Origin: an uncultured Myxococcales bacterium
Lineage (GTDB): Bacteria; Myxococcota_A; Bradymonadia; REDH01
Length of the DNA stretch: 64,000 nucleotides
Reading direction: 5' to 3'
NCBI GenBank assembly: GCA_965367675.1
Contig: CBDUJZ010000009.1
Coordinates: 2,488 to 66,487 of the forward strand
Shown here: one piece after another, positions 2,341-25,794 of the stretch
Numbering within the stretch: position 1 is the stretch's first letter
Layout: each line of letters begins with the position of its first letter
Position numbers and translations under genes: made by a program
Notes under the pieces: generated by a model
Databases searched by the model: none
What the model was told of the DNA's origin: nothing
The model's input: only the letters and a program-made list of their open reading frames with translations

Positions 2341-2450
2341 AGTTGTCTTCCTGAGACAGGTTGCCGGAGCGCTTAGCACACGCGCGCGCCTCTGCAACAT
2401 GTTCAATTCCGGCGGTCGCCAGGTGGGCGCATTCCCTGTACCCTCGCGGA

Positions 2451-5400
2451 ATGAAAGCCAGCGTTCGGAACCCCTTCGCGTCTGCGGCCCGTCTTGGGCG
2501 GCAGCTCTGTACCCCATTTGGCGCACGGTTCGGCCGGTCGTGTAAAGGCCGTCGCGGGGCCGTTCGCGGGTCCCTGGTCGCCGTCGGCGCCGCGTTTCTG
2601 CTAGCGAGCGCGGGGTGTGGCGATGACGCGGACGCCGAGGCGCTTGTGGTCGACTTTGACACGCTGCCGGCCGCCGCGCATGAGGCCCGCCCGTGGGTGC
2701 GTTGGTGGTGGCCAGGCGGCGCCGTGGACGACGCGCAGCTCGCGCAGGAGTTGGCCTGGATGGGCGAAGCGGGCTTCGGCGGGGTAGAGGTCCAGGCCTT
2801 CGACGCCGCGCTTGATCCCACAAACGGCCCCGAGTGGGACGCACGCCAGCGTGATGTGCGCTCGGCCGCGTTCATCGGCCACGTGCGCGCGGCCCTCGAC
2901 GCCGCGGCGCAACACGATATGCGCGTGGATCTCACCGTCGGCAGCGGCTGGCCCGTGGGCGGGGCGCACGTGCCGCATGAAGACGCACTCACCACGCTCA
3001 TGTGGTGGGAGTCGACTGTGCAGGGCCCCATCGAGTTGGACGTGGTGCCCGAGCCGAGCGCCAGCGTGTTCTTCGAGGTCGCGGAGCTGGCGGAGAGCGC
3101 GTTCGGGGAGCGCCTCGCGCGGTTCCTGCCGGAGCTCGCCCAGCCGGTCGCGGCGTACGCGGCGCGCGTCGAGTCAGGGTCACGATCCCGAAACTGGCTC
3201 GACCTGGACGACACCGTGGTCTTGAACCCGGCGTCGATCCGCGACCTGACCAGCAGTTGGGTGGACGGCCGGCTTCAGGCCTCGCTTCCAGCGGGGAAGT
3301 GGCACGTGGTCGCGGTGTTTTCAGGGCCCGACGGTGAGTACATCACGCTGACCTCCGAGCCTGGAAACCCGTACCCGGTGGACCACCTGAACGGCGACGC
3401 GGTCGCACGCTCTGTCACGGCACTCTTGGGGGACATCGGCGCGCATGCGGCCTGGTCGGGGCTGTTTGTGGATAGCTTAGAGTTTAAAGTTGACCGACTG
3501 TTTACCGGTGATTTCCTCGAACGGTTCGAGGAACTTCGGGGCTATGCCCTCGACCATCAGGTGTTGGCGGTTTTGGCGCAGAGCGCGGACAGTTTCTTGC
3601 TGGACGCCGGGCGGGTAGCGGTCGCCCCTGAGCTGCAGCTCGGCCCCGACGATGACCGCGTGCGCTGGGACTATCGGGAGACCGTGTCGGACCTGTTCGT
3701 CGAGCGCTTCGCTGGAACGCTCGCGTCGTGGAGCGCGGATCGGGGCATGACGCTTCGCGCGCAAAACTACGGCATCGACATCGACGTCATTCGCGCTGCC
3801 GGCGCTGCGCACATTCCGGAGACGGAGACGCTCTACGCTGGCGGAGCGAGCGTGTTCTACAAAGTCGCGGCGGCGGGAGCGCATTTGTACGGCCGGCAGC
3901 TCGTTGGGGCGGAGGCGTTTTCCTTCATCCAGCGCGACCACATGACCACGCCGCAGAAGGTGCGCGCGGCGGCGGATAAGCTGTTCGCGGCGGGCGTCAA
4001 TCACCTGGTGCTACACGGCGTTCCGTACCCGGCAGAGGGGGCGTACGGGGTGACCGGTTGGACACCGTTCTCCAGCCCGTTCGGCGGGGCGTCGACGTTT
4101 GGCTCTACGTTCGGCGAGCGTTGGGAGTTCTTCGACAGCCTGCCTGCCCTGACGGGGTACATGGCGCGGTCCCAGGCCTTGCTGCGTATGGGGACCCCGC
4201 GCGCCGACGTGCTGATCTACTACCCGTTCCATGGCTTCCCGACGTCGCTCGCGCTGGCCGAGTCGTTCCGGGAACCGCTGCTGGGCGGGCACATGGAGGG
4301 CGTGGAGGTGGAGAGCCGAGAAGTGCCGTTCGCGTCGATCGCGTCGTTGCTCGGGCCCCCGGTGGAGGACCCGCGGGTGACGTGGCTCGTGGCGCTTCAG
4401 GCGGAGATCAGCGGGCTAGAGGACGCTGGGCTCACGTGGGATTGGATCAACGCCGAGCGTTTGGCTGTCGCCACGGTGGCGGACGGGGAGATTCGAGTCG
4501 CTGACGCGGCTTATGACGCGTTGCTGCTGTTCGACGTCGCCGAGATGCCTGCGCGCGCGGCCGAGGCCGTTGCGGGCCTCTCAGAGGCGGGTGCGCGGGT
4601 CGTACTGCGGGAGGTTGACGTGCAGCAGAGCCCGTCGTTCGCCGAGCTCGGGCGCGCCGGGGAGATTCAGGCGTGGATGGCGCGTGCGCGCGCCGCGGGA
4701 GCGCAGGACGTGACGACCGTGGCGGACGAGCACCTCCCTCGGCACGTGCGTCTGACCGGGAGCGCGGGGCGGGTGCTCACGCGTACGCTGCCCCACGGAA
4801 CGCTCCACTTTGTGCACAACCCCTCGGCGACCTCCGCGACGGTGGTGGTGCAAGCGCAGCGGTGTGAGGAAGCGGTGCTGTATGACGCGTGGGCCGATGA
4901 GCGTTGGCAGCCGATCGCGGCCGAAGGCGGCGGTTGGCAACTCTCACTCCCGGCTTGGAGCGCTCGATTTTTGATCTGCGGTCAGTCCGACTCGGACGTG
5001 CTCGCGGAGATTCAATCGAGCGAGACGGGGGGCGTGGAGGTGAGCGGGTGGACGCTCGAAGCGACGTCCGCGACGGGGCTGTTCGATGCGGTCTCTTTCG
5101 CTCCAGGGCACTTGATGGATTGGCGGGAAGTTCCTGAGTTGATGGGGCTTTCTGGTGTTGCTGTGTTCGCGGGGGCGTTCGCGTGGACCGGAGAGTCAGC
5201 GGCGGAGTTGGTGCTCGAAGACGTCTACGGAACGGTCGATGTGACGGTGAACGGCACGTATGTGGGCCGGCTCGACGTGGCCCCTTGGCGCATGCCGCTG
5301 CGCGCCCCTGATGGAGGTGAAGTGCTGCGCGCGGGCGAGAACACGGTGGTGCTTCGCCACGTGCCGCCGCTACGCAACGAGCTGGTCGCTGCGGCTGCAG

Positions 5401-5492
5401 CAGGCGCGGTGGAGTACGCGCAGTTCAACGGCAAGGAGGACTCGCTGGTGGCGAGCGGCGTGGTCGGGCCGGTTCGCGTGGTCGGGCGCTAG
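2451..5492 (+). CDS. Secreted lipoprotein glycoside hydrolase, GH106-like (putative alpha-L-rhamnosidase family); family assignment tentative
   Basis: 1043-aa ORF, start chosen at MKASVRN... (alternatives: ATG at 2361 or a downstream GTG). Lipobox LLASAGC. N-terminal PWVRWWWPGGAVDDAQLAQELAWMGEAGFGGVEV resembles the conserved FWFWN...GxGG start of GH106-type hydrolases. Confidence 0.7.
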   Translation: MKASVRNPFASAARLGRQLCTPFGARFGRSCKGRRGAVRGSLVAVGAAFLLASAGCGDDADAEALVVDFDTLPAAAHEARPWVRWWWPGGAVDDAQLAQELAWMGEAGFGGVEVQAFDAALDPTNGPEWDARQRDVRSAAFIGHVRAALDAAAQHDMRVDLTVGSGWPVGGAHVPHEDALTTLMWWESTVQGPIELDVVPEPSASVFFEVAELAESAFGERLARFLPELAQPVAAYAARVESGSRSRNWLDLDDTVVLNPASIRDLTSSWVDGRLQASLPAGKWHVVAVFSGPDGEYITLTSEPGNPYPVDHLNGDAVARSVTALLGDIGAHAAWSGLFVDSLEFKVDRLFTGDFLERFEELRGYALDHQVLAVLAQSADSFLLDAGRVAVAPELQLGPDDDRVRWDYRETVSDLFVERFAGTLASWSADRGMTLRAQNYGIDIDVIRAAGAAHIPETETLYAGGASVFYKVAAAGAHLYGRQLVGAEAFSFIQRDHMTTPQKVRAAADKLFAAGVNHLVLHGVPYPAEGAYGVTGWTPFSSPFGGASTFGSTFGERWEFFDSLPALTGYMARSQALLRMGTPRADVLIYYPFHGFPTSLALAESFREPLLGGHMEGVEVESREVPFASIASLLGPPVEDPRVTWLVALQAEISGLEDAGLTWDWINAERLAVATVADGEIRVADAAYDALLLFDVAEMPARAAEAVAGLSEAGARVVLREVDVQQSPSFAELGRAGEIQAWMARARAAGAQDVTTVADEHLPRHVRLTGSAGRVLTRTLPHGTLHFVHNPSATSATVVVQAQRCEEAVLYDAWADERWQPIAAEGGGWQLSLPAWSARFLICGQSDSDVLAEIQSSETGGVEVSGWTLEATSATGLFDAVSFAPGHLMDWREVPELMGLSGVAVFAGAFAWTGESAAELVLEDVYGTVDVTVNGTYVGRLDVAPWRMPLRAPDGGEVLRAGENTVVLRHVPPLRNELVAAAAAGAVEYAQFNGKEDSLVASGVVGPVRVVGR

Positions 5493-7290: not shown

Positions 7291-8777
7291 CTACACGTCT
7301 GTGTCCGACGTGGGTTTCCGCTTGAGCCAGAGCCGGAAGCACGTGCCCGAGCGATCGGCGAGATTCACGTGCTCCAGCTCGCCGCCCATCGCTCGCGCGA
7401 CCTTTTTGGACACCGCGAGTCCCAAGCCGGTGCCCTTGATCTTGGTGGTGAAGAACGGCTCGAACATGCGCCTGCGGACGTCTTCCGGTAGGCCTGGGCC
7501 CGTATCGTAGACCTCGATGTACTCGGTGTTTGCGACGATCCGGAGCTCTCCCTCGCCCTGCATCGCTTGGCACGCGTTGATGGCGAGATTGACCAGCACT
7601 TGGCGCACCATCTCAGGATCGATGGCCATGTGCGGGTTTCCACGCACGCGCATGATCACGTTGGGGTAATCGATGCTCAGGCCGTCGAGGACTTCGCGGC
7701 ACAGCTCGGCGACGTCGATACCGCTCTCGCTGCGGAACTGGTTGGGGCGCGCGTACGCGAGCAGGTCGGTGACCAAGTTGTTGAGGCCGCGCACCTGCTT
7801 GAGCACGCGGTCGATGATGTTATGCAGCCGGTCTCCGCTGGTGAACTCGTTCTGGATGACCTGCAGCGCGCCGCTGATTCCAGCGAGCGGGTTGCGAAGC
7901 TCATGCGCCAGCGTGGCGGTCAGCGTGCCGATCTGCGCCAGGTGTTCGGCTTGCTGCGCGCGCCGTTCGGCTTCGACCGCTGCGGTGTGGTCTTGCACGT
8001 ACGCGATGAGGCCGGCCTCGGGCGCTTCGAGCGGTACCAGCGTGATCGAGACGTGCGCTGGCCGCCCGCCGATCGTGATGTCGACGCGCCGAATGCGCAG
8101 GCTCTCGCGGTCTTGAAGCGCCCGTTGGATGTGGTCCTCAAAGTCGGCGTCTTGGAACAGGCTCGGCGGGAGCACGTCCCGGTAGTGTGCCCCCACGGAG
8201 GAGCGGTGCCCAAACAGCCAGGCGGCCGCCGACGTGGACGAGATCACGTTGCCGTGTTCGTCGAGCAAGATGGCGGCGGCGGGCAGGTGGGCGATGAGCA
8301 GCATACGCGCATCACGGACCCGCTTTTGCGCCTCCACCGAGTGGTACGTGCTCGTCATGAGCCCGAGGTCGAGCATGGTGACCTTGCGGATCGCGTTCAC
8401 GGTGCTCGTCGGGTCCTCCGTCGCCGCGATCGCGATCTGAATCAGATCCTCCTGCATTGCCGACATCGCGAAGAACATGGCCGCGTGCGACACGCCGACG
8501 CGCACGTGGACATGGCCGATCCGCTGCCGTGCGTGGGTGTAGTCATCGTCCCACGGGCCGTTGAGCATGCTCTGGATCCAGCGCTTGAGCGTCTGCTTGA
8601 GTCGCTCCACCTGGACCGGGTCAGAGATGATCTCGCGGGTCGTCGGGTGCGCGAGCACCTTCTCGTAGAAGTGCTCGACCACCGGACCGAGTTCTGGCTC
8701 CACAAACGGCCACAGGCGCTGCAGCAGCGCTTTGTCTTCGGAGCTGAAATCTCCGTAGGAGCAGAACTCGTCGATGT

Positions 8778-8781
<4 letters not shown>
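7291..8781 (-). CDS. Globin-coupled sensor histidine kinase (sensor globin + PAS + HisKA + HATPase_c)
   Basis: N-terminal protoglobin/sensor-globin fold (LWPFVEPELGPVVEHFYEKVLAHPTTREII...ARQRIGHVHVRVGV), a PAS-like middle segment, an H-box (LAHELRNPLAGI) and N/G boxes (DTGPGLPED...GTGLGLAV). ATGA overlap with the upstream response regulator. Confidence 0.9.
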
Positions 8782-10139
<1,358 letters not shown>

Positions 10140-10284
10140 ATTGGGGGGTGTGCCGTACTAAACAGCGGGTGTGTGATTTCGCACGTGTCGGGGCCAAAGG
10201 CCAGACGGTGTGCGGGGGATGCCGCCCGGATGGGCGTTCTCACACGCTTAAAGAGCAAAGTGCGTGCCAGCCTTGGGGTAGGCG

Positions 10285-10422
10285 TCAGTTGTCATCGAGC
10301 GCCCGATAAGCGGCGTCCTCGATATCGTCGAATTGGCCGCCGCGGACGGCGCGAATGAACATGACGACGAAGAGCCCAGCCAAGCTCACCGAGAGTGGGA
10401 GCAGGATTATGAGGATGTCCAT
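10285..10422 (-). CDS. ccoS: cbb3 oxidase maturation protein CcoS/FixS
   Basis: 45 aa, MDILIILLPLSVSLAGLFVVMFIRAVRGGQFDDIEDAAYRALDDN, the classic CcoS motif. Start overlaps the ccoI stop. Only the 3' 138 nt of track ORF 10285..10872 are used. Confidence 0.8.
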   Translation of the reverse strand: MDILIILLPLSVSLAGLFVVMFIRAVRGGQFDDIEDAAYRALDDN

Positions 10423-12836
10423 AGCGGGCTTCCGTGTGTGGAGGGGCCCCGCGTGTTTGCGGGGGCCGGTGCGGTCCCAAGGGCTGGGGCGCGGGAAGAG
10501 GTCGAGCGGACACGGCGCGGGATGCTGAGCGCGTTCCCGATCACCACCAGGCTCGATAAGGGCATGAGCACCGCGGCGGCCAAGGGGGTGATCATGCCGG
10601 CGCAGGCGAGGCACACCGCGCCCACGTTGTAGGCCAACGCGAAGCGTGCGTTTTGGCGCAACACCCGTGTGACTTCGCCCCCGACGGCCCGCGCGTGCGC
10701 GACTGGGGCCAAGCCGGGGGCCACCACGACCACGTCTGCGGCTTGCAGCGCGGCCTCGGCGCCTTCGCCCATCGCGACGCCTACGTGGGCGTTTGCCAGC
10801 GCGGGTGCGTCGTTGATGCCGTCGCCCACAAACAGGACCTTCGCGCCGGTCGCGGTGGTGTCGAGCACCCACGCCGCCTTGTCTTCGGGGCGCAGCCCGC
10901 CGTGCGCGTGCACGGTCACGTTGGTGTAGCCCAATGCAGCAGCTTCGGCCGTAACCTCGGACAGCACCTGGGCGACCACGTCGGGGTGATCGCCGCTGAG
11001 CACGGTCGCGGGGACGCCGATGCGGGAGAGGGCGGTCACGGCGTCATCGCGGAGCGTATCGCGGACGGTGATGGTGCCGAGCGAGACGCCGTCGCAGGTC
11101 ACGTCGAGCACGTTGGGCGCGATGGGCGCGACGCGGATCTCGTGGCCTTCGACCGTGCCGCAGACGCCGCCGCCCTCGAGCTCCGTGACGTGGCTTGCGC
11201 GCCGCGCAGGTGTGTCACGGCGCTGCAGTTCGTGCGTGATGGCCCGCGCGATGGGGTGCACGCTGCCCAGCTCGACCGCTGCGGCCCAGGTGAGCGCCTC
11301 GTCGTTGGCGTCCACCACGCGCGGGCGGCCCTCCGTCAGCGTGCCGGTCTTGTCGAACGCTGCGTCCGTGACCTCGGCGAGCGCGATGAGGGCTTCGCCG
11401 GAGCGAACGAACGCGCCTCCGCGGGCGGCTGCGCCGATGCCGACCGCGAACGTCGTGGGGGCTGCCAGCGCGAGCGCGCAGGGACATGCGACGACCAGCA
11501 CCGCGACCACGATTCGCACGGCTGCGTCCGGTCCGGCGGTGACTCCCCACGCGATGCCCGCGACGATCGCGGTCGCCAGCACTGCGGCGGTAAAGTACGG
11601 CGCGATGCGATCGACGTGGTCTGCGCGCGGGACACGGCTCTCAAGGGCGTCGCGCACCATCGTCTCGATGCGTGCGACCGTGGATTGCGCCGCTGCGCGG
11701 ACGACTTCGGCGCGTAGTTGGCCGGACACGATGCTCGCACCCGCGGGGAGGGCTTCGTCCGGGCCGATCGTGATGGGCCGCGCTTCGCCGGTGACGTGCG
11801 ATACGTCGGCGTAGCCGGTTCCGCTTCGCACGATGGCGTCGGCGCCGAGCCGTTGTCCGGTGCCGACGACCAGCATGTCGCCGGGTTGCAGCGTGTCGAC
11901 GGCGACCTCAAACACGCGGCCGTCGCGCTCGACCATCGCCATCGTCGGGGCGGCGGCGAGCACAGCTTCTGCGGCCGCAGCGGCCCGGTTCCGTCCTTGG
12001 CTGACCAGTACGCGACCGCCGAGCAGGAACGTGATGAGCATGACCAGAGAGTCGAGGTAGGCGGGCGCGCCGGAGCGCGTCGCGAGCGCGCCGTGCACGT
12101 ACATGACGGCGATGGCGAACGCGATCGGGACGTCCATGGACACGATGCCGCGTCGCAGGGATTGAATCGAGCCGGTGAAGAAGGTGGTGGCCGAGTACAA
12201 CACCGCCGGAGTGGCGAGCAGCAGGGCGCCCCAGGCGAACAGCACGCCGTAGCGTTGTTCCATGCCCTGCGCGTCGCCGAAATAGATCGCCACGTGCATG
12301 AACATGACGTTCATGGCGCAGAACGCGGCGACGCCGAGCCGCGTGAGCTCGTCGGCCGAGGTGGTTGCAGCTGCGGACGGCTCTTGAGGCGTGTATCCGA
12401 GCGACGCGACCACGTTGGCGATGCCCTGCGCGGATTGTTGTGTGGCGTCGAATTTTACGGTCGCGACGCCGGTGCCGTAGGACACGTGGGCGTCCGAGAT
12501 CCCAGGTGTGCTGGCGAGCACACGCTCGTTGAGCCAAACGCACGCGGCGCACCGCACGCCGCCGACGCGGAGGCGCATCTCTTGGGTGCCGTCGCCGAGG
12601 TCGCGGATAAATCGAGCGGCGTAGGCCTCGCTGTCGAACGCCCGGTTGTCGTGGGACATGGGGCGGGGCGAGTAGCCCTCGCGGCGCTCGTAGAACGCAT
12701 CCCACCCTCCCTCGTGCAACAGGCCGGCGACGGTTTCGCAGCCAGCGCAACAGTAGACGGGAGCGGTCTCATCTTCCGTCGCTCGAACCGGGAGGCCACA
12801 GTGCGCACACGCGCGGTTGGGGCTCCGCGGTTCCAC
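10407..12836 (-). CDS. ccoI: Copper-translocating P1B-type ATPase CcoI/FixI
   Basis: N-terminal CxxC...CxxC metal-binding region, CPC transmembrane motif, DKTGTLT phosphorylation site and GDGINDAPAL hinge. Located in the ccoGIS context. GTG start. Confidence 0.9.
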   Translation of the reverse strand: MEPRSPNRACAHCGLPVRATEDETAPVYCCAGCETVAGLLHEGGWDAFYERREGYSPRPMSHDNRAFDSEAYAARFIRDLGDGTQEMRLRVGGVRCAACVWLNERVLASTPGISDAHVSYGTGVATVKFDATQQSAQGIANVVASLGYTPQEPSAAATTSADELTRLGVAAFCAMNVMFMHVAIYFGDAQGMEQRYGVLFAWGALLLATPAVLYSATTFFTGSIQSLRRGIVSMDVPIAFAIAVMYVHGALATRSGAPAYLDSLVMLITFLLGGRVLVSQGRNRAAAAAEAVLAAAPTMAMVERDGRVFEVAVDTLQPGDMLVVGTGQRLGADAIVRSGTGYADVSHVTGEARPITIGPDEALPAGASIVSGQLRAEVVRAAAQSTVARIETMVRDALESRVPRADHVDRIAPYFTAAVLATAIVAGIAWGVTAGPDAAVRIVVAVLVVACPCALALAAPTTFAVGIGAAARGGAFVRSGEALIALAEVTDAAFDKTGTLTEGRPRVVDANDEALTWAAAVELGSVHPIARAITHELQRRDTPARRASHVTELEGGGVCGTVEGHEIRVAPIAPNVLDVTCDGVSLGTITVRDTLRDDAVTALSRIGVPATVLSGDHPDVVAQVLSEVTAEAAALGYTNVTVHAHGGLRPEDKAAWVLDTTATGAKVLFVGDGINDAPALANAHVGVAMGEGAEAALQAADVVVVAPGLAPVAHARAVGGEVTRVLRQNARFALAYNVGAVCLACAGMITPLAAAVLMPLSSLVVIGNALSIPRRVRSTSSRAPALGTAPAPANTRGPSTHGSPLWTSS

Positions 12837-12967
12837 TAACGGTCGGCCGTTTGATAGCTCTCGACGACCTGGTCCTTATGGGTGAGGGCGACCGCGATGA
12901 AGCAGGCGTCCACCACGATGACCAGCGTGAGCAGGCCGATGACGAGGTGCAAAGGATGGATGCGCAT
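12836..12967 (-). CDS. Small 43-aa single-TM protein between ccoG and ccoI (unannotated by the ORF track)
   Basis: ATG..TAG ORF MRIHPLHLVIGLLTLVIVVDACFIAVALTHKDQVVESYQTADR with GC3-rich codons. 14 nt after the ccoG stop. Its TAG shares 1 nt with the ccoI GTG start. Confidence 0.45.
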   Translation of the reverse strand: MRIHPLHLVIGLLTLVIVVDACFIAVALTHKDQVVESYQTADR

Positions 12968-12987
12968 TCGGCTTCCTTGGGTGTCGC

Positions 12988-14331: not shown

Positions 14332-14831
14332 TAGTTTGGCGCGGTCAGCGACAAGACATACGCGGTCACATGAGCGAGGCCTTCGGGGCCGATGACGGGG
14401 AGCCACGGCGGCATGCCCTTGTCGAGCACGCCGAGGGCGATCGTCTCACGCACTTCGGGAATACCGGAGCCGTGAATCCACTCATCGTCCACCAAGCTGG
14501 GGCCGATGCCGCCGGTCGCGTCTGCCATGTGGCAGGCGACACAGCGGGTGGCGAAGATCTCGGCGCCGCTGGCGATCGCCGCGTCGCTCATCACGATCTC
14601 GATGGAGTTCAGGTCAATGGGCTGCGGCGCCGCGGCCATCTCAGCCTCGTACGAGTCGCTCAGGTTATGCGGGGTGATGATGTGCCAATCGACGATGACG
14701 CCGATGCCCCAGATGACGGTGAGGACGAACAGTCCAACCCACCACGTGGGCAACTTGTTGTCGTATTCTTCGATGCCATCGCTGTCTTCGGCGTGGCCGC
14801 GAAGTTGGTCCGGAATATACGGCTCACCCAC
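14331..14831 (-). CDS. ccoP: cbb3 oxidase subunit III CcoP (monohaem c-type cytochrome, short form)
   Basis: EEYDNKLPTWW N-terminal CcoP motif, a transmembrane helix and one CVACH haem-binding site. Confidence 0.85.
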   Translation of the reverse strand: MGEPYIPDQLRGHAEDSDGIEEYDNKLPTWWVGLFVLTVIWGIGVIVDWHIITPHNLSDSYEAEMAAAPQPIDLNSIEIVMSDAAIASGAEIFATRCVACHMADATGGIGPSLVDDEWIHGSGIPEVRETIALGVLDKGMPPWLPVIGPEGLAHVTAYVLSLTAPN

Positions 14832-15027
14832 GGGCGTCCTCGGCAGGTGCGGGGACGATCGCGTCGTCCAGTGGAAGGAGTGCGGCCTCTCGGTAGATGG
14901 CCGCGGCGCCCGGGCGGAACATCCGCAGGAACACGAGCGCGAAGAAGCAGAAGAACCCGACGGTGACGGCGCCCATCAGCAAACCGCCGGACGCCATATC
15001 ACCGGCCTGTCGAAAGATAGGATTCAT
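14824..15027 (-). CDS. ccoQ: cbb3 oxidase subunit IV CcoQ-like small membrane protein
   Basis: 67 aa with a single transmembrane helix, sitting between ccoO and ccoP and overlapping both; position and size are typical of ccoQ. Confidence 0.6.
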   Translation of the reverse strand: MNPIFRQAGDMASGGLLMGAVTVGFFCFFALVFLRMFRPGAAAIYREAALLPLDDAIVPAPAEDARG

Positions 15028-17284: not shown

Positions 17285-17445
17285 GGGTCGTGTGTGCGGG
17301 GGCGGGGGAGCGCCGCGGAGGGCAAGAAGTGCCCAAGAGTCTGCAACGCTCATGCCAGCCAGGATCCGAGCGAGCGCGGTCAAACACCGACACACCGTGA
17401 ACGCGCGCCGCTCGTGGGAGTGCGCGAGCCTCGATGCCCCCCACG

Positions 17446-17470: not shown

Positions 17471-18301
17471 GTGGCAATTCGCCCAGCCATGTGTGTGATC
17501 CTGCACACTTGCTTCGCCCTCTGCGTCGGGAAACGCCCGAGTTCGCTGGGTGTGAGATTTGGCACAACGCCTGCATTAAGTCGCCGCGTGACCACTTCAG
17601 CACTCATCGCGCTCCTATTCGCTTCCCTGGCCGTCGGCTTCGTCGGTAGCCTGCATTGCGTTGGCATGTGCGGCCCGTTTGCGGCCTTGGCAGGCACGCG
17701 CGGCTGGAAGGGCGTGATCACATATTCTTCTGGACGGCTGCTGACTTACGGGCTGCTCGGTGCATTTGCCGGACTGTTCGGCGCAGCGCTCGCGGCGCTC
17801 CGTGAGGTCGGACTCGTGGTCGCTGTGGTCATCTTGCTCACCGTATCTCTACAGCTCGCAGGTGTGTTGCCTGAGCCGCGCATCGGCGCTCGTTGGTCTG
17901 CACCCCTCGTTCGCTGGGTGCAACGCGCCCGGGCGGGCCGTTTCGCACTAGGCGTCACCACCGCGCTCCTGCCGTGCGGTCTCGTATACGCCGGCCTCGG
18001 TGTGGCCATCGGCGCTGGCTCCCCGCTGTGGGGCGCGCTCGCGATGGTCACGTTCGGTCTGGGCACTTGGCCCGCGTCCCTGCTCGTCGGCGTTGGCGCC
18101 GGTCGCTTGATGCGGGTGCGTAAACCGGTCCAGCGAGTCGCCGCCGCCATCGTGTGTGTCGCCGGACTGTGGACGCTCAGCCACCGCGCGCCGTCCCATC
18201 TCGTCGAGCCGCCCTCGGAGCCTGGAGCGTCCGAGGCAGCACCGCTTGACCAGGCCCCCATTCCTTCCTGCTGCGCCGGCAACGTCTCAGCCCCGCAGTG
18301 A
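17471..18301 (+). CDS. DsbD_2 / TauE-SafE-like polytopic membrane protein with HCxxMCGP motif (start uncertain; GTG near 17590 possible)
   Basis: Six or more transmembrane helices. LHCVGMCGPF motif in TM1 and a second conserved Cys (LLPCGLVY). Confidence 0.7.
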   Translation: MAIRPAMCVILHTCFALCVGKRPSSLGVRFGTTPALSRRVTTSALIALLFASLAVGFVGSLHCVGMCGPFAALAGTRGWKGVITYSSGRLLTYGLLGAFAGLFGAALAALREVGLVVAVVILLTVSLQLAGVLPEPRIGARWSAPLVRWVQRARAGRFALGVTTALLPCGLVYAGLGVAIGAGSPLWGALAMVTFGLGTWPASLLVGVGAGRLMRVRKPVQRVAAAIVCVAGLWTLSHRAPSHLVEPPSEPGASEAAPLDQAPIPSCCAGNVSAPQ

Positions 18302-18338
18302 ATCCGCGGCTCTGCCGCACAACCCCGCAAGAGGCACC

Positions 18339-18656
18339 ATGACCGAAATCAACCGTCGACAATTTCTTGAGCGCGCTGCAATCCTCGGCGCGAGCCTCAG
18401 CGCTGGCGCGCTCCTGATCGGCTGCAACAGTGGCGGCGGAGCGTTGTCCTGCACGGACACGGCCGGCCTCGACGCCGCCCAGGTCTCCCTGCGCACCAAC
18501 AACGGCTACGTAGAGCGCAGCACGGTCGCGTCCAAGAACTGCGCCAACTGCTCGCTCTTCACCGCCGGCGGCGAAGGCTCCTGCGGCAGTTGTTCCGTCG
18601 TGCCCGGCCCGATCAACCCGGCCGGCTACTGCAACATCTGGGTCGCCGCAGCCTAG
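18339..18656 (+). CDS. High-potential iron-sulfur protein (HiPIP), Tat-exported lipoprotein
   Basis: Start at MTEINRRQFLERAAILGASLSAGALLIGC (twin-arginine motif plus lipobox). Four Cys in the HiPIP arrangement (CANCSLF...CGSCSVV...GYCNIW). Confidence 0.85.
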   Translation: MTEINRRQFLERAAILGASLSAGALLIGCNSGGGALSCTDTAGLDAAQVSLRTNNGYVERSTVASKNCANCSLFTAGGEGSCGSCSVVPGPINPAGYCNIWVAAA

Positions 18657-18710: not shown

Positions 18711-19640
18711 CTACTCGGCTGCATCCGGCTCGCTCGGCTCTGCGGCCGTATCTGCATGAGCCTCCGGTTTCGGAATCCGTCCGAAGCCCGAGAGCTCCTG
18801 TTTCACCCACCCGTCAGGGTAGTCGTGTAGGCCTTCGAACCCGAGGGCGATGTCACGACCGTCGGACGGCCACCAGGCGGTCTTGAACAGCCAGTCCCAC
18901 AGGCTCAGGCTGATGCCGAAGTTGCATCCGTAGCGGCCGGGCTGCGTGTACGCGTGGTGCCAGATGTGCATCTGTGGCGTGTTGAAGATGTAGCGCAGGG
19001 GCCCGACCGGCAGCCGAACGTTGCTGTGGTTCAGGTGGCCGATGGTCAGCGCGATCGCGTGCACGATGAAGAAGTCGGTGAGGCCGAAGCCGAGCATCGC
19101 CAGGGGGATATACTCGAGCGTCCGGTACACGATCGTCTCCATCCAGTGGTAGCGAAGGTGTGCGGCGAACCCCATCTGCGTCACGCTGTGGTGCACCTTG
19201 TGGAACTGCCACAACCGGTCACTGCGATGGAGCAGCCGGTGCACGTTCCAGTGGATGAAATCGCGCACCACAAACATGACCGCGAGCTTGGCCAAGAGCG
19301 GCCAGCTGCTGATCTCGATGGCGACTAGGTTCTCCCAGCCGAACACGGAGCGTAGCGCGTCGTTGAACGCGACGGAGACGACGCGGGAGAGGGCGGCGTA
19401 GCCGAGCGCGGAGAAGATGAAAAAGTTGAACACCATGTACCAGGCGTCCAACCAGAAGTCCTTCCGCTGCCATGGCTGCTGCTTGCGCCACGGCGCCACT
19501 TGCTCGGCCACGAAACAGGCAACGGACACTGCGAATAGCAGCGTCACGTAGTTGCCCCACCCCGGGTTCAAGAGCTCGTGCTTCAGGTACGCGCCGTACC
19601 CGTAGAAAGCGTCCCGAAAGATGGCGGCGTAGTCGCTCAT
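18711..19640 (-). CDS. Fatty-acid hydroxylase / sterol desaturase family membrane di-iron enzyme
   Basis: Histidine boxes HWNVHRLLH, HKVHH and HIWHH within a polytopic membrane protein. Confidence 0.85.
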   Translation of the reverse strand: MSDYAAIFRDAFYGYGAYLKHELLNPGWGNYVTLLFAVSVACFVAEQVAPWRKQQPWQRKDFWLDAWYMVFNFFIFSALGYAALSRVVSVAFNDALRSVFGWENLVAIEISSWPLLAKLAVMFVVRDFIHWNVHRLLHRSDRLWQFHKVHHSVTQMGFAAHLRYHWMETIVYRTLEYIPLAMLGFGLTDFFIVHAIALTIGHLNHSNVRLPVGPLRYIFNTPQMHIWHHAYTQPGRYGCNFGISLSLWDWLFKTAWWPSDGRDIALGFEGLHDYPDGWVKQELSGFGRIPKPEAHADTAAEPSEPDAAE

Positions 19641-19661: not shown

Positions 19662-21467
19662 CTACTCGCCTTCGGCGCAAACGGTGTCTTGCTCAACAAT
19701 GTGGAACTCCACGCGGCGGTTCTGGGCTCGGCCGCTTCGGCTGTCGTTGTCGGCGATCGGGCGTGTCTCGCCAAATCCTACCGCGTCGACGGATGTACGC
19801 ACGCCCTGGTTCTCCAGGTAGGTGCGGACCGACTCGGCGCGTTCTTGCGACAGCGTCAGGTTGCTGTCGTCGGAGCCGCGGTCATCGGTATGTCCTTCGA
19901 CGCGCACGCGACGAATTTGATTCGCCGAGCGCAGAACTGTCGCCACTTGGTTGAGGAGCTCGAACGAGCGGGCCTCGATTTCAGCGGAGCTGGTCTCGAA
20001 GTACACGTTCTCGGCGATCTCGATGCGGTCGCACTGCAAGGACACGAGTCCCTCGCCTTCTTCGGGGCATCCATCGTCGTCTTCGAAGCCGTCGTAGTCT
20101 TCGGGCAGCTCGGGGCAGGCGTCGTCGGCGTCGAGCATTCCGTCACGGTCGTTGTCCGACTCGGGGCATCCGTCGGCATCTTCGAATCCGTCGAAGTCTT
20201 CGGGGCTGTCCGGGCAGTCGTCGTCAATGTCCAAGACGCCGTCGCCGTCGTTGTCGAGGTCCGGGCATCCGTCCATGTCCTCGAATCCGTCGATGTCCTC
20301 GGCGATGTCGGGGCAGTCGTCGTCCTCGTCGTCGATGCGGTCGCCATCGTTGTCGATGTCGGGGCATCCGTCGGCGTCTTCGAAGCCGTCGTTGTCCTCG
20401 GCCTGCAGCGGGCACGTGTCGTTGAAGTCGAGGATTCCGTCGCCGTCGTTGTCCGGGTCGGGACAGCCGTCGGTGTCTTCGAAGTCGTCGTGGTCCTCGG
20501 CGTCGGCCGGGCACAGGTCGTTGGCGTTGAGCACGCCGTCTTCGTCGCAGTCGTCACATCCGACCGACGAGACGCCGATCTCCAGCATGAAGCGCCAGTC
20601 GGGCGCGCCGAAGCCGCGGAGCAGGCCCATGCCGAAGCCGCCACCCACGTGGACACGGTCGGCGATGTAGCGGCCGCCGATGCGGGCTTCGATGGGGAGC
20701 TCTTCGCGGTCGATGGAGTCCGCAAGCGCAGAGACCGCGCCTTCGAACTCGAGGAGCAGGTGACCGGCCTTCTCCGCGCCCAGCGCGATGTCGATACCGG
20801 CGCCGTACGTGATGACGTCGTCGACCTGCAGGTTCGCGATCTCGCCGCTGCCCGTGCGCACCATGTAGCCCGCGTTGAACATCAGGCGGAACTGCTCCGC
20901 GAACGCCACGTCGAACAGCAGGCGAGGGTGCACGCGGAGGTCTTCGCCCTGCAGCGTGTCCACGTTGCCCAACGGCAGGAACACGCCGACCTCGAGGGCC
21001 AACGAGACGCCGCCGGGGGACTCGCTCGTGTCGCCGTTGAACAACTGCAGCTTGGGGATGATGCGCGGGTCCGCGATGCCGACGCCGGCGTCGTGTCCGT
21101 TGAAGTCCAAGTTGGGTACGTTGTCGCCGGTCTGGCGCAGGATCATCGGGACGTCGAAGCCGATCTCAAGACGGTCCGCGATACCCACCGAGAATAGTAC
21201 GTTGGTGACGAGCTGGTCGTGCACGAGCGCGTTCTTCTGCTCGTCGCCGTCGTAGATGCCGAGCAGGTCGTCCGCGTAGTGGAGCATGAGACCGAGTTCC
21301 CACTGACGGGCGGCTTGGATCTGCGCGGAGCCAACACCGAAACCGTTGAGCCGCTGGCTCGCGTTCGGGTGCAGGTTCTGGACGTCGAAGCCGTCGTACG
21401 CGGCGGCCGGCGAGGCAGAAAGGAGCAGCGCGGCGATGCTGCCGAGGCCAAGTGCGCGAAGTTTCAT
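19662..21467 (-). CDS. OmpA-family outer-membrane protein with thrombospondin type-3 (DxDxDGxxDxxD) calcium-binding repeats
   Basis: Signal peptide (MKLRALGLGSIAALLLSASPAAA), beta-barrel-like N-terminal region, about 10 TSP3 Asp-rich repeats and a C-terminal OmpA_C domain (VEGHTDDRGSDDSNLTLSQERAESV...NRRVEF). Confidence 0.85.
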   Translation of the reverse strand: MKLRALGLGSIAALLLSASPAAAYDGFDVQNLHPNASQRLNGFGVGSAQIQAARQWELGLMLHYADDLLGIYDGDEQKNALVHDQLVTNVLFSVGIADRLEIGFDVPMILRQTGDNVPNLDFNGHDAGVGIADPRIIPKLQLFNGDTSESPGGVSLALEVGVFLPLGNVDTLQGEDLRVHPRLLFDVAFAEQFRLMFNAGYMVRTGSGEIANLQVDDVITYGAGIDIALGAEKAGHLLLEFEGAVSALADSIDREELPIEARIGGRYIADRVHVGGGFGMGLLRGFGAPDWRFMLEIGVSSVGCDDCDEDGVLNANDLCPADAEDHDDFEDTDGCPDPDNDGDGILDFNDTCPLQAEDNDGFEDADGCPDIDNDGDRIDDEDDDCPDIAEDIDGFEDMDGCPDLDNDGDGVLDIDDDCPDSPEDFDGFEDADGCPESDNDRDGMLDADDACPELPEDYDGFEDDDGCPEEGEGLVSLQCDRIEIAENVYFETSSAEIEARSFELLNQVATVLRSANQIRRVRVEGHTDDRGSDDSNLTLSQERAESVRTYLENQGVRTSVDAVGFGETRPIADNDSRSGRAQNRRVEFHIVEQDTVCAEGE

Positions 21468-21732
21468 CGGTAACCCTCTCAAAGACAAATGTGAGATCGT
21501 GTTCGGGACGATTCGCACGCCATGGATAAAAACGCAAAGCATCGCCGTACGCCAAGGGCCTCGGGATACGCGGTGAGGGCGGCGTCTTTAGCCGGAACCC
21601 AATGAACACGCGGCAGTGCTCGAATCAGATTCGGAAATGAAATCGGTCAAGGTTGTTGAATAGAACGTGTTTCAGTACGTATATTCTGTTGCGCAATTGC
21701 ATTACGTAACTGCCTCCGCGTCCACTCAAGTC

Positions 21733-22436: not shown

Positions 22437-24575
22437 CTAGTAGAACGACTTGCCGGAGGCGGCCATGTCGCGAAGCAGCTGGGGTGCCTCGAAGCGGTCG
22501 CCGTGCACCTCGCGCAGCGCGTCGCACTTCTCGACGAACGCAGCGGCACCGACCGTGTCGATGAGCGCGAGCGGGCCGCCGGTGTAGGGCGCGAAGCCCC
22601 AACCCATGACCGCGCCTACGTCGGCGTCCTCGGGAGCGAGCAGCACACCTTGCTCCATGCATCGCGCCGCCTCGAGCGCTTGCACGTACAAGAACCGCTG
22701 GATGATCTCCTCGGCCGACGGCTGCGTCGCCTTGGTGGGGTACTTTTCACGCAGGCCCGGCCAGAGCGACTTGGAGCCGTCCTCAGCGTAGTCGTAGAAG
22801 CCCTTGCCGTTGGACCGACCGAAGCGCTGGTTTTCCTCGACGAGGAACGACAGCACCGGCGTGGACGGGTTCGACTTGTACGCGTCGCCGAGGTCCTTCT
22901 TGGTCTGCACACCGACGTCGTGCATCAGCTTGACGCCGACCTCGTCTGCCAGGCCGAGGGGCGGCATGGGCATTCCGGACAGCTTGCCAGCGTTCTCCAC
23001 GAGCGCGGGGGCCACGCCTTCGGTGAGCATGGCCACGCCTTCGGTCACGTAGGTGCCGAACACGCGCGAGGTGTAGAAGCCGCGGGCGTCGTTGACGACG
23101 ATGGGCGTCTTTCGAATCTGCTGCACGTAGTCGAGCGTCTTGGCGAGTGTCTCGTCGCTGGTCTTCTCGCCACGAATGACCTCGACGAGCGCCATCTTCT
23201 CTACGGGGGAGAAGAAGTGCACGCCGATGAAGTTCTCCGGTCGGCCAGACGCCTCGGCGAGCCCGGTGATGGGCAGCGTTGACGTGTTGGAGCCGAACAC
23301 GGCGTCGGCCGAGATGACCGCCTCGGCCGCCTTGGTGACGGTCGCTTTGACCTTCCGGTTTTCGAAGACGGCCTCGATGACGAGGTCGCATCCGTCCAGG
23401 TCCGCGTAGTCGGCGGTGGGGTGGATCTTGGCGAGCAGCTGCTCCTTGTCAGTGTCGGTGGCGCGCTTGCGAGCGATGCGCTTGTCCATGCGCTTGGCGC
23501 TGTACGCCTTACCTTTCTCCGCCCTCGCGAGGTCACGATCGAGCAGCACGACATTCATACCGGCCTTGGCGGAGACGAACGCCACGCCGGCGCCCATGAG
23601 GCCCGCGCCGATCACACCGAGCTTGGTGACCTTGGATTTGGGGACGCCTTCGGGCCGTCGCGCGAGCTTGTTGGCGTCCTGCAGGCTGAGGAACAACGTG
23701 CGGACCATGTTGCCGCTGACCGGGTCGAGAATCAGCGACACAAAGTAGCGGTTCTCGATGATGAGGCCGGTGTCGAAGTTGGTGAGCAGGCCCTCGTAGA
23801 CGCAGGACATGATCGCCAGTCCCGCCGGGTAGTTCCCGTGGGTCTTCTCGTTGTACATGGCGGTGCCGGCCATGAACGTCTGCAGGACCTTCTTGGCCTT
23901 GGAGTCGCCGCCGGGCACCTTGAAGCCCTTCTTGTCCCAGGGCTGGACCGGGTCGCCGTTCTCAAGGATCCACTTCTTGGCGGTCGCGACGGTGTCGGCG
24001 GCAGGGACGACGGCGTCGATGAAGCCGGCCGCCAGTGCTTTCTGCGGGCTGAAGTTCTTGCCCTCGAGCATGACCGGCAGCGAAGCTTGCACACCGATCA
24101 TACGCGGCAAGCGCTGGGTGCCGCCGGCGCCGGGCAGCAGTCCGAGGTTGGACTCCGGCAGCGCCAGTTGAATGCGCGGCGAGTCGGCGACCACGCGGTA
24201 GTGACAGGCGAGCGCGAGCTCGAGGCCACCGCCCATCGCGGCGCCGTTGATGGCGCACGTGAACGGCTTTCCGCAGGTCTCCATGCGCCGAAGCACGCGG
24301 CCGAGCGTTCCGGTAGACTTGGCCAGATCGGCCGCCACCTTGGGCCCGAACGCGAGGCGCCGCACGGAGTTCAGGTCGGCGCCGGCCACGAAGGTGGACT
24401 TGCCGGACGTGATGACCGCGCCCTTGACCGCGTCGTCCGCGGCGACCTTCTCGATGGCCGCCGTGAGGGCGTCCAGCGTGGCTTCGTTGAACACGTTGGC
24501 ACCTTCGCCGGGCGTGTCCCAGGTGAGGGTGGCGATGCCGTCGCTATCGACTTCGAATTTGATGATGTCGCTCAT
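22437..24575 (-). CDS. fadB: Fatty-acid oxidation complex alpha subunit (enoyl-CoA hydratase / 3-hydroxyacyl-CoA dehydrogenase), FadB/FadJ-like
   Basis: Start at the internal ATG (MSDIIKFEVD...) preceded by GAGGAGG. Crotonase fold at the N-terminus and a 3HCDH Rossmann domain (GVIGAGLMGAG) at the C-terminus. Confidence 0.9.
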   Translation of the reverse strand: MSDIIKFEVDSDGIATLTWDTPGEGANVFNEATLDALTAAIEKVAADDAVKGAVITSGKSTFVAGADLNSVRRLAFGPKVAADLAKSTGTLGRVLRRMETCGKPFTCAINGAAMGGGLELALACHYRVVADSPRIQLALPESNLGLLPGAGGTQRLPRMIGVQASLPVMLEGKNFSPQKALAAGFIDAVVPAADTVATAKKWILENGDPVQPWDKKGFKVPGGDSKAKKVLQTFMAGTAMYNEKTHGNYPAGLAIMSCVYEGLLTNFDTGLIIENRYFVSLILDPVSGNMVRTLFLSLQDANKLARRPEGVPKSKVTKLGVIGAGLMGAGVAFVSAKAGMNVVLLDRDLARAEKGKAYSAKRMDKRIARKRATDTDKEQLLAKIHPTADYADLDGCDLVIEAVFENRKVKATVTKAAEAVISADAVFGSNTSTLPITGLAEASGRPENFIGVHFFSPVEKMALVEVIRGEKTSDETLAKTLDYVQQIRKTPIVVNDARGFYTSRVFGTYVTEGVAMLTEGVAPALVENAGKLSGMPMPPLGLADEVGVKLMHDVGVQTKKDLGDAYKSNPSTPVLSFLVEENQRFGRSNGKGFYDYAEDGSKSLWPGLREKYPTKATQPSAEEIIQRFLYVQALEAARCMEQGVLLAPEDADVGAVMGWGFAPYTGGPLALIDTVGAAAFVEKCDALREVHGDRFEAPQLLRDMAASGKSFY

Positions 24576-24585
24576 TCCGTCCTCC

Positions 24586-25794
24586 TCAGACCCGTTCGAT
24601 GATGGTGGCAGTGCCCATTCCGGCACCGACGCAGAGGGCGGCGAGCCCGTACTTGAGATCTCGGCGCTCCATCTCATCGAGGAGCGTGCCGAGGATCATG
24701 GCGCCGGTGGCACCGAGCGGGTGGCCCAATGCGATGGCGCCGCCGTTCACGTTCACGGTGTTCATGTCGATCTCGAGCACTTCGGCGAAGCGCAGGACGA
24801 CGGCGGCGAACGCCTCGTTGATCTCCCACAGGTCGATGTCCGACACGCTGAGTCCGGCCTTATCGAGCGCCATCACGGCGGCATCGGCGGGGCCGGTGAG
24901 CATGATGGTCGGCTCGGAGCCGATCGAGGCGAACGATTTGATGCGGGCGCGCGGCTTGAGGCCGTTGCCGTTGCCGAACGCCTCGTTACCGACGAGGACC
25001 ACCGACGCGCCGTCCACGATGCCCGACGAGTTGCCGGCGTGGTGCACGTGGTTGATGGTCTCCATGTCGGGGTAGCGCTGCTTCGCCACGGCGTTGAAGC
25101 CGTAACTCTCGCCCATCGTCTTGAACGCGGGCTTGAGCTTGGCGAGCGTCTGCACGGTCGTCTGCGGGCGCATGTACTGGTCGCGCGCGAGCACGGTCAG
25201 GCCATTGGCGTCGAGCACGGGCACGACCGACTTGTCGAACAAGCCTTGGTCCCACGCGGCGGCGGCGCGGCGCTGGCTCTCGGCGGCGAGCGTGTCGCAC
25301 ATCTCGCGGGTGTATCCCCAGCGCGTCGCGATCATGTCGGCGCTGATGCCCTGCGGCACGAACTTGAGCTTGGTCGATACCTGCGGGTTCGTGGCCCACG
25401 GGCCGCTCGCCGAGCCCATCGGGACGCGGCTCATGCACTCCACGCCGCCGCCGACAACGGCCTCGGACATGCCGGACATGACCTTCGCCGCCGCGATGTT
25501 TACCGACTCAAGACCCGACGAGCAGAAACGGTTGAGCTGAAAGCCGGGCACGTTCTGCGGCCAATCGGCGTACAGCGCGGCCACGCGAGCGATGTTGCCG
25601 CCTTGCTCGCCGACGGGCTCCACGCAGCCGAGGATGACGTCCTCCACTTGGGAAGCGTCAAAGTCGTTGCGGTCACGGAGCGCGCGCAGCGGGGCAGCCG
25701 CGACGTCGATCGGCGCGAGGCTGTTCAGGCCACCGCCGGGCTTACCATTGCCGCGCGGGGTGCGGACGGCGTCATAGATAAAACAATCGGTCAC
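24586..25794 (-). CDS. fadA: Acetyl-CoA C-acyltransferase (3-ketoacyl-CoA thiolase), FadA-like
   Basis: Thiolase motifs (VRTPRG, NRFCSSGL active-site Cys, NVNGGAIALGHPLGATG, AALCVGAGMG). GTG start (VTDCFIYDAV...) preceded by GAGGAGAG. Lies 10 nt upstream of fadB. Confidence 0.9.
   Translation of the reverse strand: MTDCFIYDAVRTPRGNGKPGGGLNSLAPIDVAAAPLRALRDRNDFDASQVEDVILGCVEPVGEQGGNIARVAALYADWPQNVPGFQLNRFCSSGLESVNIAAAKVMSGMSEAVVGGGVECMSRVPMGSASGPWATNPQVSTKLKFVPQGISADMIATRWGYTREMCDTLAAESQRRAAAAWDQGLFDKSVVPVLDANGLTVLARDQYMRPQTTVQTLAKLKPAFKTMGESYGFNAVAKQRYPDMETINHVHHAGNSSGIVDGASVVLVGNEAFGNGNGLKPRARIKSFASIGSEPTIMLTGPADAAVMALDKAGLSVSDIDLWEINEAFAAVVLRFAEVLEIDMNTVNVNGGAIALGHPLGATGAMILGTLLDEMERRDLKYGLAALCVGAGMGTATIIERV

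Follow-up and report, generated by a model that had tools for sequence, protein, structure and literature searches.

A 43-codon gene between ccoG and ccoI of an uncultured Myxococcales bacterium as a candidate helix-only derivative of the cbb3 oxidase protein CcoH

A 43-codon open reading frame (ORF) lies between ccoG and ccoI in the cbb3 oxidase cluster of an uncultured Myxococcales bacterium (assembly GCA_965367675.1, contig CBDUJZ010000009.1, positions 2,488 to 66,487; this stretch of 64,000 nucleotides (nt) was analysed as a whole and is referred to as the window). CcoH, also named FixH, is essential for formation of the cbb3 oxidase in model bacteria and behaves as a subunit. We propose that the small frame, hereafter the mini ORF, is a genuine gene for a helix-only descendant of CcoH with a stabilising or assembly role on the oxidase, a reading to which we assign a probability of about 0.6. 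A preliminary description of the ORF, made from the letters of the window, had offered two readings: a novel micro-protein of cbb3 or copper maturation, and a minimal remnant of CcoH. The evidence favours the latter reading, in that the predicted helix aligns in register with that of FixH.

Results

The mini ORF is located on the minus strand at 12836-12967, from an ATG at 12967-12965 to a TAG at 12838-12836, and the 43-amino-acid (aa) peptide, MRIHPLHLVIGLLTLVIVVDACFIAVALTHKDQVVESYQTADR, was exactly as quoted in the preliminary description. The TAG and the GTG start of ccoI (12836) have one base in common, in the sequence TAGTG. The distance to ccoG had been given as 14 nt; measured from the ccoG TGA (12990-12988) to the mini ORF ATG it is 20 nt. 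A Shine-Dalgarno-like AAGGAAG was seen in the sequence at 12972..12978 (minus strand), 4 nt before the ATG. The frame is GC3-rich, as described, with a G+C content of 0.86 at third codon positions (GC3) versus 0.30 at second positions (GC2). An upstream start of ccoI, which would have turned the region into part of that gene, is not possible, since no start lies between an in-frame stop and GTG 12836. The description of the ORF as unannotated holds in that it has no name and no Pfam hit, but the exact 43-aa peptide has already been called in NCBI, ENA and Logan assemblies, and its homologues carry the label "hypothetical protein" (e.g. MFT6399520.1). No promoter or terminator signal was found in the ccoG-ccoI gap. 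An RNA element in the gap was ruled out, as no Rfam family reached its gathering score anywhere in the window.

An alternative version of 51 aa begins at ATG 12991 and overlaps the ccoG stop as ATGA. The extension of eight residues is impossible in two homologous loci (L032 and L002), so the 51-aa version was rejected as the conserved form, which is the one of 43-44 aa. A reading frame of this length is not significant alone: calculated from base composition at 66% GC, our own estimate is that about one case in three would show 43 open codons by chance. The gap is also overlapped by two ORFs of the opposite strand, of 47 and 56 aa. The case for a gene consequently depends on conservation.

To retrieve loci of relatives, CcoG was used to scan 185,579 species genomes. 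Two close relatives were recovered, a Myxococcales metagenome-assembled genome (MAG; HK-STAS-MYXO-4, JACKDJ01) and a Bradymonadia MAG (JBLHWZ01); their CcoG proteins have 55-56% identity, and each carries an ORF of 44 aa at the corresponding place. Among 1.84 billion cluster representatives, searched exhaustively with phmmer, no more than four real relatives came to light; the matches P0005 (1514 aa, with no aligned stretch) and P0008 (a repetitive protein of 363 aa) were judged to be spurious. In a word-indexed protein search the single peptide matched only itself. A profile search with the family alignment in a collection of 5.8 billion clusters added one new member, and a metagenome scan with CcoG one more (L037), for a total of eight distinct mini homologues of 43-44 aa. 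One of them (P0009) is known as a protein only, from a contig of 548 nt, and is outside the count of DNA contexts. All seven homologues viewed as DNA are positioned between ccoG and ccoI, and contigs of sufficient length carry ccoNOQP-ccoG-mini-ccoI-ccoS clusters. Locus L033 repeats the full arrangement of the window, including a response regulator and a sensor kinase after ccoS.

The reading frame is conserved as protein in the relatives, with invariant residues, ratios of nonsynonymous to synonymous substitution (dN/dS) below 1 and the ccoG-ccoI slot in all those viewed as DNA. Ten columns are invariant in an alignment of six sequences (A1): M1, H7, L8, L12, L13, V16, F23, S37, Y38 and R43. 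The same ten stay invariant in the seven distinct sequences compared when L037 and P0009 are added. Nei-Gojobori dN/dS was 0.17-0.80 in 12 of 15 pairs, those in which dS was unsaturated. Differences between family members are most frequent at codon position 3, followed by position 1 and then position 2, and across the family GC3 is 0.66-0.89 versus a GC2 of 0.27-0.40. Of the six possible frames, that of the mini ORF is the only one without stops in all six loci compared. In a neighbour-joining tree of CcoG the loci with a mini ORF formed a clade in 200 of 200 bootstraps, and CcoG within this Myxococcota-like clade has diverged to about 55% identity. The clade support indicates that the mini gene was present at the base of the clade and was kept while CcoG diverged. 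Judged from these sequence comparisons, the mini ORF is a real, long-retained protein-coding gene.

The signals that tie the mini ORF to its neighbours were compared among loci. At its 5' end it overlaps the ccoG stop as ATGA or GTGA in L001, L033 and L037. The signal at the 3' end varies: a 20-nt overlap with ccoI in the same three loci, TAGTG in the window, and a gap of 2-3 nt in L032 and L002. Where the genes overlap, the ATG of ccoI is embedded in the codons of a Ser-Tyr pair of the mini protein (AGC TAT Gnn; L001 6477-6496, L033 5116-5135, L037 938-957), so that the final 20 nt of the mini ORF code for both proteins. In the window, L032 and L002 this overlap is resolved and the Ser-Tyr pair is kept. 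Its retention where no ccoI start overlaps argues that Ser-Tyr is selected at the protein level.

The preliminary description had presented the product as a transmembrane protein, and both hydropathy and structure prediction agree with this. The Kyte-Doolittle average over 19 residues peaks at 2.84 for residues 8-26. AlphaFold2, run with the family alignment, predicted one helix at residues 5-29 (codons 12881..12955, minus strand), with a predicted local distance difference test score (pLDDT) of 83-96 for the block; this segment aligns in register with the FixH helix. The polar tail (residues 30-43 and the TAG, 12836..12880, minus strand) contains the invariant Ser-Tyr and a C-terminal Arg; its pLDDT is low (55-57), and residues 37-41 were predicted as a short helix. 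One basic residue precedes the helix and two follow it, which makes the positive-inside rule uninformative on orientation. The helical moment of conservation was exceeded in 0.2% of permutations (p = 0.002). The conserved residues form a stripe on one face of the modelled helix (H7, L12/L13, V16, D/N20, F23 and A27 in window numbering), and such one-faced conservation is the pattern expected of a helix packing against a membrane partner.

The place between ccoG and ccoI is the normal position of fixH, as had been pointed out: full-length fixH occupies it in L006-L024 and L039-L051. CcoG retrieved more than 30 other loci in which ccoG is followed by a gene for a FixH of 145-180 aa, and all 13 full-length FixH proteins tested passed the Pfam model PF05751. 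In some gammaproteobacterial loci the protein after ccoG is a FixH-like protein of 266-272 aa (L019 6388-7206; L022 6414-7214; L024 6392-7207; L048-L051). At its N-terminus this form has about 90-100 further, hydrophobic residues, which probably make up additional membrane helices, before the FixH-like helix and a C-terminal region (a local FixH hidden Markov model, HMM, matches L050), and it is the opposite of the truncation seen in the mini ORF.

Profile comparisons connected the mini ORF with the helix of FixH. Pfam FixH was its sole Pfam match at E≤10, with 13.6 bits and E=0.068 over profile positions 9-42 of 150; the 51-aa version scored 13 bits. When the mini family was aligned with the 13 full-length FixH proteins by hhalign, columns 6-37 were placed on columns 18-49 with a probability of 77%. 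When all 1042 six-frame ORFs from the window were searched with a FixH HMM built from neighbours, the mini ORF came first, with an E of 0.054 that is weak. Conversely, an HMM of the mini family was searched against 7676 six-frame ORFs from all loci, including the helices of CcoN, CcoG, CcoI and DsbD_2. FixH ORFs occupied ranks 1-3 after the family itself (hypergeometric p=6e-8) and made up eight of the 20 top ORFs (p=3e-15). In every match it was the helix of FixH that aligned, mid-helix Asn/Asp included. In the reverse search with the FixH HMM, five of six mini ORFs were listed immediately below the 31 true FixH matches.

A MAFFT alignment of N-termini, which included the two CcoH/FixH chains of the Protein Data Bank (PDB), 6xkw_h and 9g6b_C, was gapless for the mini family over the FixH helix, and the Ser-Tyr pair of the mini protein fell at or beside a conserved aromatic motif that follows this helix. 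The mini ORF thus has the traits of an N-terminal FixH segment: a single transmembrane helix, a mid-helix Asn/Asp and a polar/aromatic juxtamembrane segment. Like CcoH/FixH (PF05751; R. capsulatus 6xkw chain h; 9g6b chain C), it holds the same slot with a single N-terminal transmembrane helix that aligns in register. Unlike CcoH/FixH, which has about 145-180 aa, it has 43 aa, and it is without the C-terminal domain and without most of the basic N-terminal extension.

The C-terminal FixH domain, about 100 residues long (roughly profile positions 50-150), is absent: the mini ORF stops after residue 43, and its stop codon is where ccoI begins. No FixH-domain match was found in CcoG, CcoI or any six-frame ORF of the window. 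The suggestion that the C-terminus of CcoG might already carry a FixH-like domain was not borne out, as only the Ig-like FixG_C domain was found there; FixG_C is also present in CcoG proteins encoded beside a full-length FixH. Compensation by CcoG was accordingly rejected, its length being normal (447-453 aa), its FixG_C standard and a FixH match lacking. The ccoP gene (14831→14331, minus strand) encodes 166 aa with FixP_N and Cytochrome_CBB3 domains and one CxxCH motif (CVACH), which makes the protein monohaem, versus the canonical dihaem subunit. That the mini form goes together with a monohaem CcoP was rejected, because such a CcoP is also encoded beside full-length FixH (L006-L013, L015, L018 and others). 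Many loci outside the Proteobacteria have this combination, often with a fused CcoNO.

In three Verrucomicrobial loci the fixH slot holds a "hypothetical protein" of 50-59 aa with a single helix, in the order ccoG-mini-DsbD_2-ccoI. One locus is from Pelagicoccus sp. SDUM812002, a cultured bacterium (WP_309024108.1), and the others are from two Puniceicoccaceae MAGs; the ORFs are at 6343-6501 in L003, ~4969-5139 in L004 and ~4338-4490 in L005. They gave sub-threshold HMM matches to FixH in the same register (hhalign 22%). Compared with the window family they showed no detectable similarity (hhalign 8%), and they differ from it by a longer basic N-terminus and by the lack of the SY...R tail. A single origin of the two groups was rejected, since a joint CcoG clade appeared in 2 of 200 bootstraps and hhalign gave 8%. 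With separate CcoG clades and undetectable similarity, the reduction of CcoH to its helix seems to have happened at least twice, the Verrucomicrobial case being argued mostly from synteny.

The cco cluster of the window is wholly on the minus strand, in the order ccoN-ccoO-ccoQ-ccoP-ccoG-mini ORF-ccoI-ccoS. The ccoN gene (17284→15812; 490 aa from ATG 17284) matched COX1 and TIGR00780 (660 bits), and ccoO (15815→15024) matched FixO PF02433 with E=6e-85. A ccoQ-like gene (15027→14824; 67 aa) reached 29.5 bits versus a cutoff of 29 for FixQ PF05545. The ccoG product (14331→12988; 447 aa) belongs to the cupric reductase family (TIGR02745, 386 bits; Fer4_18 and FixG_C). The ccoI gene (12836→10407) encodes a CopA2-type P1B ATPase of 809 aa (Pfam ATPase-cat_bd, HMA, E1-E2_ATPase and Hydrolase; TIGR01525), and ccoS (10422→10285; 45 aa) was identified by FixS PF03597 with E=5e-15 and is a called gene in L028.

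Directly downstream of ccoS on the minus strand is a sigma-54-dependent response regulator (8778-10139), and after it a protoglobin-PAS-HisKA sensor kinase (7291-8781). Such a pair also trails the cluster in L033 (8215-10135), and regulation of the cbb3 operon by oxygen sensing through the response regulator and the protoglobin kinase is plausible. A perfect sigma-54 -24/-12 consensus, TGGCACGCACTTTGC, is located at 10255-10269 (minus strand) between the ccoS stop and the start of the response regulator, and a copy with one mismatch, TGGCATGAGCGTTGC, at 17343-17357 (minus strand), some 59 nt upstream of ATG 17284 of ccoN. Across the window three consensus sites were found versus 4.6 expected; as this count is not above chance, their placement alone is suggestive.

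Divergent from ccoN, on the plus strand, are a DsbD_2-family membrane protein (17471-18301) and a HiPIP-domain protein (18156-18656). In other phyla a DsbD_2 gene is located between fixH and ccoI, and the HiPIP protein could be an electron donor to the oxidase. The remaining flanking genes look ordinary: a GH106 rhamnosidase-like protein (2361-5492, plus strand) and, on the minus strand, a fatty-acid hydroxylase family protein (18711-19640), an OmpA-domain protein (19662-21542) and a FadB-type enoyl-CoA hydratase/3-hydroxyacyl-CoA dehydrogenase (22437-24677).

Discussion

We hypothesize that the single helix of the mini protein descends from the N-terminal helix of CcoH/FixH, and that this helix and some 14 polar residues are what remained when the C-terminal domain of FixH (about 100 residues) was lost. 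The conserved face (H7, L12/L13, V16, D/N20, F23, A27) would pack against CcoN and/or CcoP by analogy with CcoH, and the mini protein would serve the cbb3 oxidase as a small subunit for stability or assembly. Its synthesis would be kept in step with that of CcoG and CcoI by translational coupling. We infer descent from FixH from weak but convergent sequence evidence together with synteny. Binding to the oxidase and a part in its assembly are suggested by analogy, the docking on CcoN and CcoP being presumed from CcoH.

According to the summary of Pawlik et al. 2010 in PMC8267372 and to PMC4742706, CcoH of R. capsulatus is needed for cbb3 assembly, binds with its transmembrane domain and is retained in the active enzyme. 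In the map of a bc1-cbb3 supercomplex, an extra helix beside transmembrane helix 9 (TMH9) of CcoN was attributed to the N-terminal helix of CcoH on the basis of co-evolution and cross-linking, and this helix touches both CcoN TMH9 and CcoP (PMC7876108). PDB entry 9g6b (chains A and C), which was found with alignment A2 and the CcoN of the window, combines a cbb3 CcoN with a 166-aa "FixH family protein"; our literature search found no paper on this structure.

Several points weigh against a helix-only CcoH. Every single FixH homology score of the mini ORF is below threshold. It misses the PF05751 gathering threshold of 23 bits with its 13.6 bits, two other members of the mini family had no Pfam match of any kind, NCBIfam gave no match to the mini ORF, and a PDB profile search with alignment A1 (chains of at least 20 residues; the PDB copy included 5djq) was empty at E≤10. 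Hydrophobic helices are, moreover, prone to spurious similarity. One pair has a dN/dS ratio as high as 0.8, and several have a saturated dS. A second, full-length fixH may be present elsewhere in these genomes, the search having covered the 64 kb of the window and up to 11 kb in the relatives. Pawlik et al. 2010 reportedly state in their abstract that the oxidase of R. capsulatus is active only with a CcoH that has a hydrophobic stretch at its C-terminus; on that ground a helix-only CcoH would not be expected to suffice in that organism.

Synteny, alignment register and rank enrichment nevertheless agree with one another and in this way support homology with FixH. From the sequence comparisons we consider it quite probable that the mini protein is homologous to FixH/CcoH. 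The rating is kept moderate because each score is weak and hydrophobic helices match spuriously. Since the Pfam threshold is missed and the C-terminal domain, two thirds of the family model, is absent, we describe the protein as a helix-only derivative of CcoH and not as a database member of the FixH family.

Instead, fixH might have been replaced by a small cbb3 accessory protein that is lineage-specific and has no relation to FixH, comparable to CcoQ, CcoM or CcoX, with a helix that resembles that of FixH by convergence. Repeated origins are known for small cbb3 subunits with a single helix, CcoQ, CcoM and CcoX among them (PMC4742706, PMC8267372), and such a replacement would agree with FixH scores under all curated thresholds and with the empty PDB profile search. 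CcoM of Pseudomonas stutzeri is a 36-aa helix on CcoN that stabilises the complex, and it fills density in the crystal structure that was formerly assigned to CcoH (PMC4742706). By its published description it is the same concept as the one proposed here, a short helix against CcoN that serves stability over catalysis. CcoQ/FixQ (PF05545) and CcoS/FixS (PF03597) are likewise similar to the mini protein in size, in having a single helix and in their location in cco clusters, but the mini protein matched neither at E≤10, and the operon has its own ccoQ (14824-15027) and ccoS (10285-10422). An unrelated origin is also difficult to reconcile with a slot identical to that of fixH, with a consistent gapless register on the FixH helix that extends to the mid-helix N/D and the motif after the helix, and with a reciprocal rank enrichment of p=6e-8 to 3e-15 obtained in spite of the many other helices searched. 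We consider this explanation unlikely.

The mini ORF could also be a functionless leftover of fixH that persists as a translated spacer and relays ribosomes from ccoG to ccoI, so that its translation matters and its peptide does not. Tight coupling signals are conserved at both ends of the ORF, and a gap devoid of promoter and terminator signals fits this idea. A relay needs no set sequence or length, yet the ORF is fixed at 43-44 codons with ten invariant residues. Nor does a relay account for conservation with helical periodicity (p = 0.002) and a dN/dS below 1, or for persistence of the ORF while CcoG fell to about 55% identity, and we regard it as very unlikely. A chance, untranslated frame in GC-rich intergenic DNA, for all that one such frame in three is expected by our estimate and that longer ORFs overlap the gap on the opposite strand, is hardly credible and, to judge from the sequences, effectively refuted by a frame that is the sole one open in all six loci, a protein conserved over eight sequences, codon-like composition with dN/dS below 1, and a Shine-Dalgarno motif ahead of the ATG.

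Returning to a helix-only CcoH, no paper on a truncated or helix-only CcoH/FixH was found, which is absence of evidence, as the literature coverage was incomplete. If the proposal is true, these lineages provide a natural deletion experiment in which the C-terminal FixH domain is dispensable or has been replaced by another partner, and the mini ORF stands for a small cbb3 oxidase subunit that is minimal and as yet unnamed. A helix-only clade under purifying selection with one conserved face would point to the helix as the conserved working part of CcoH. We tentatively suggest, at slightly short of even odds, that the functional core of CcoH is the transmembrane helix alone, and that a Myxococcota-like clade and, independently, some Verrucomicrobia have long run their cbb3 oxidases with a helix-only CcoH. 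The mini protein would then be a ready-made minimal CcoH construct for complementation, cross-linking and cryo-electron microscopy.

For the field the step is incremental: a variant of a known factor and not a new type of system, with a function inferred by analogy, and of use to specialists in cbb3 biogenesis. Because these genes of 43-59 aa in the ccoH slot are called "hypothetical protein" or are missed by family models, cco clusters in these lineages appear to be without ccoH, so that the finding is also of practical use for annotation.

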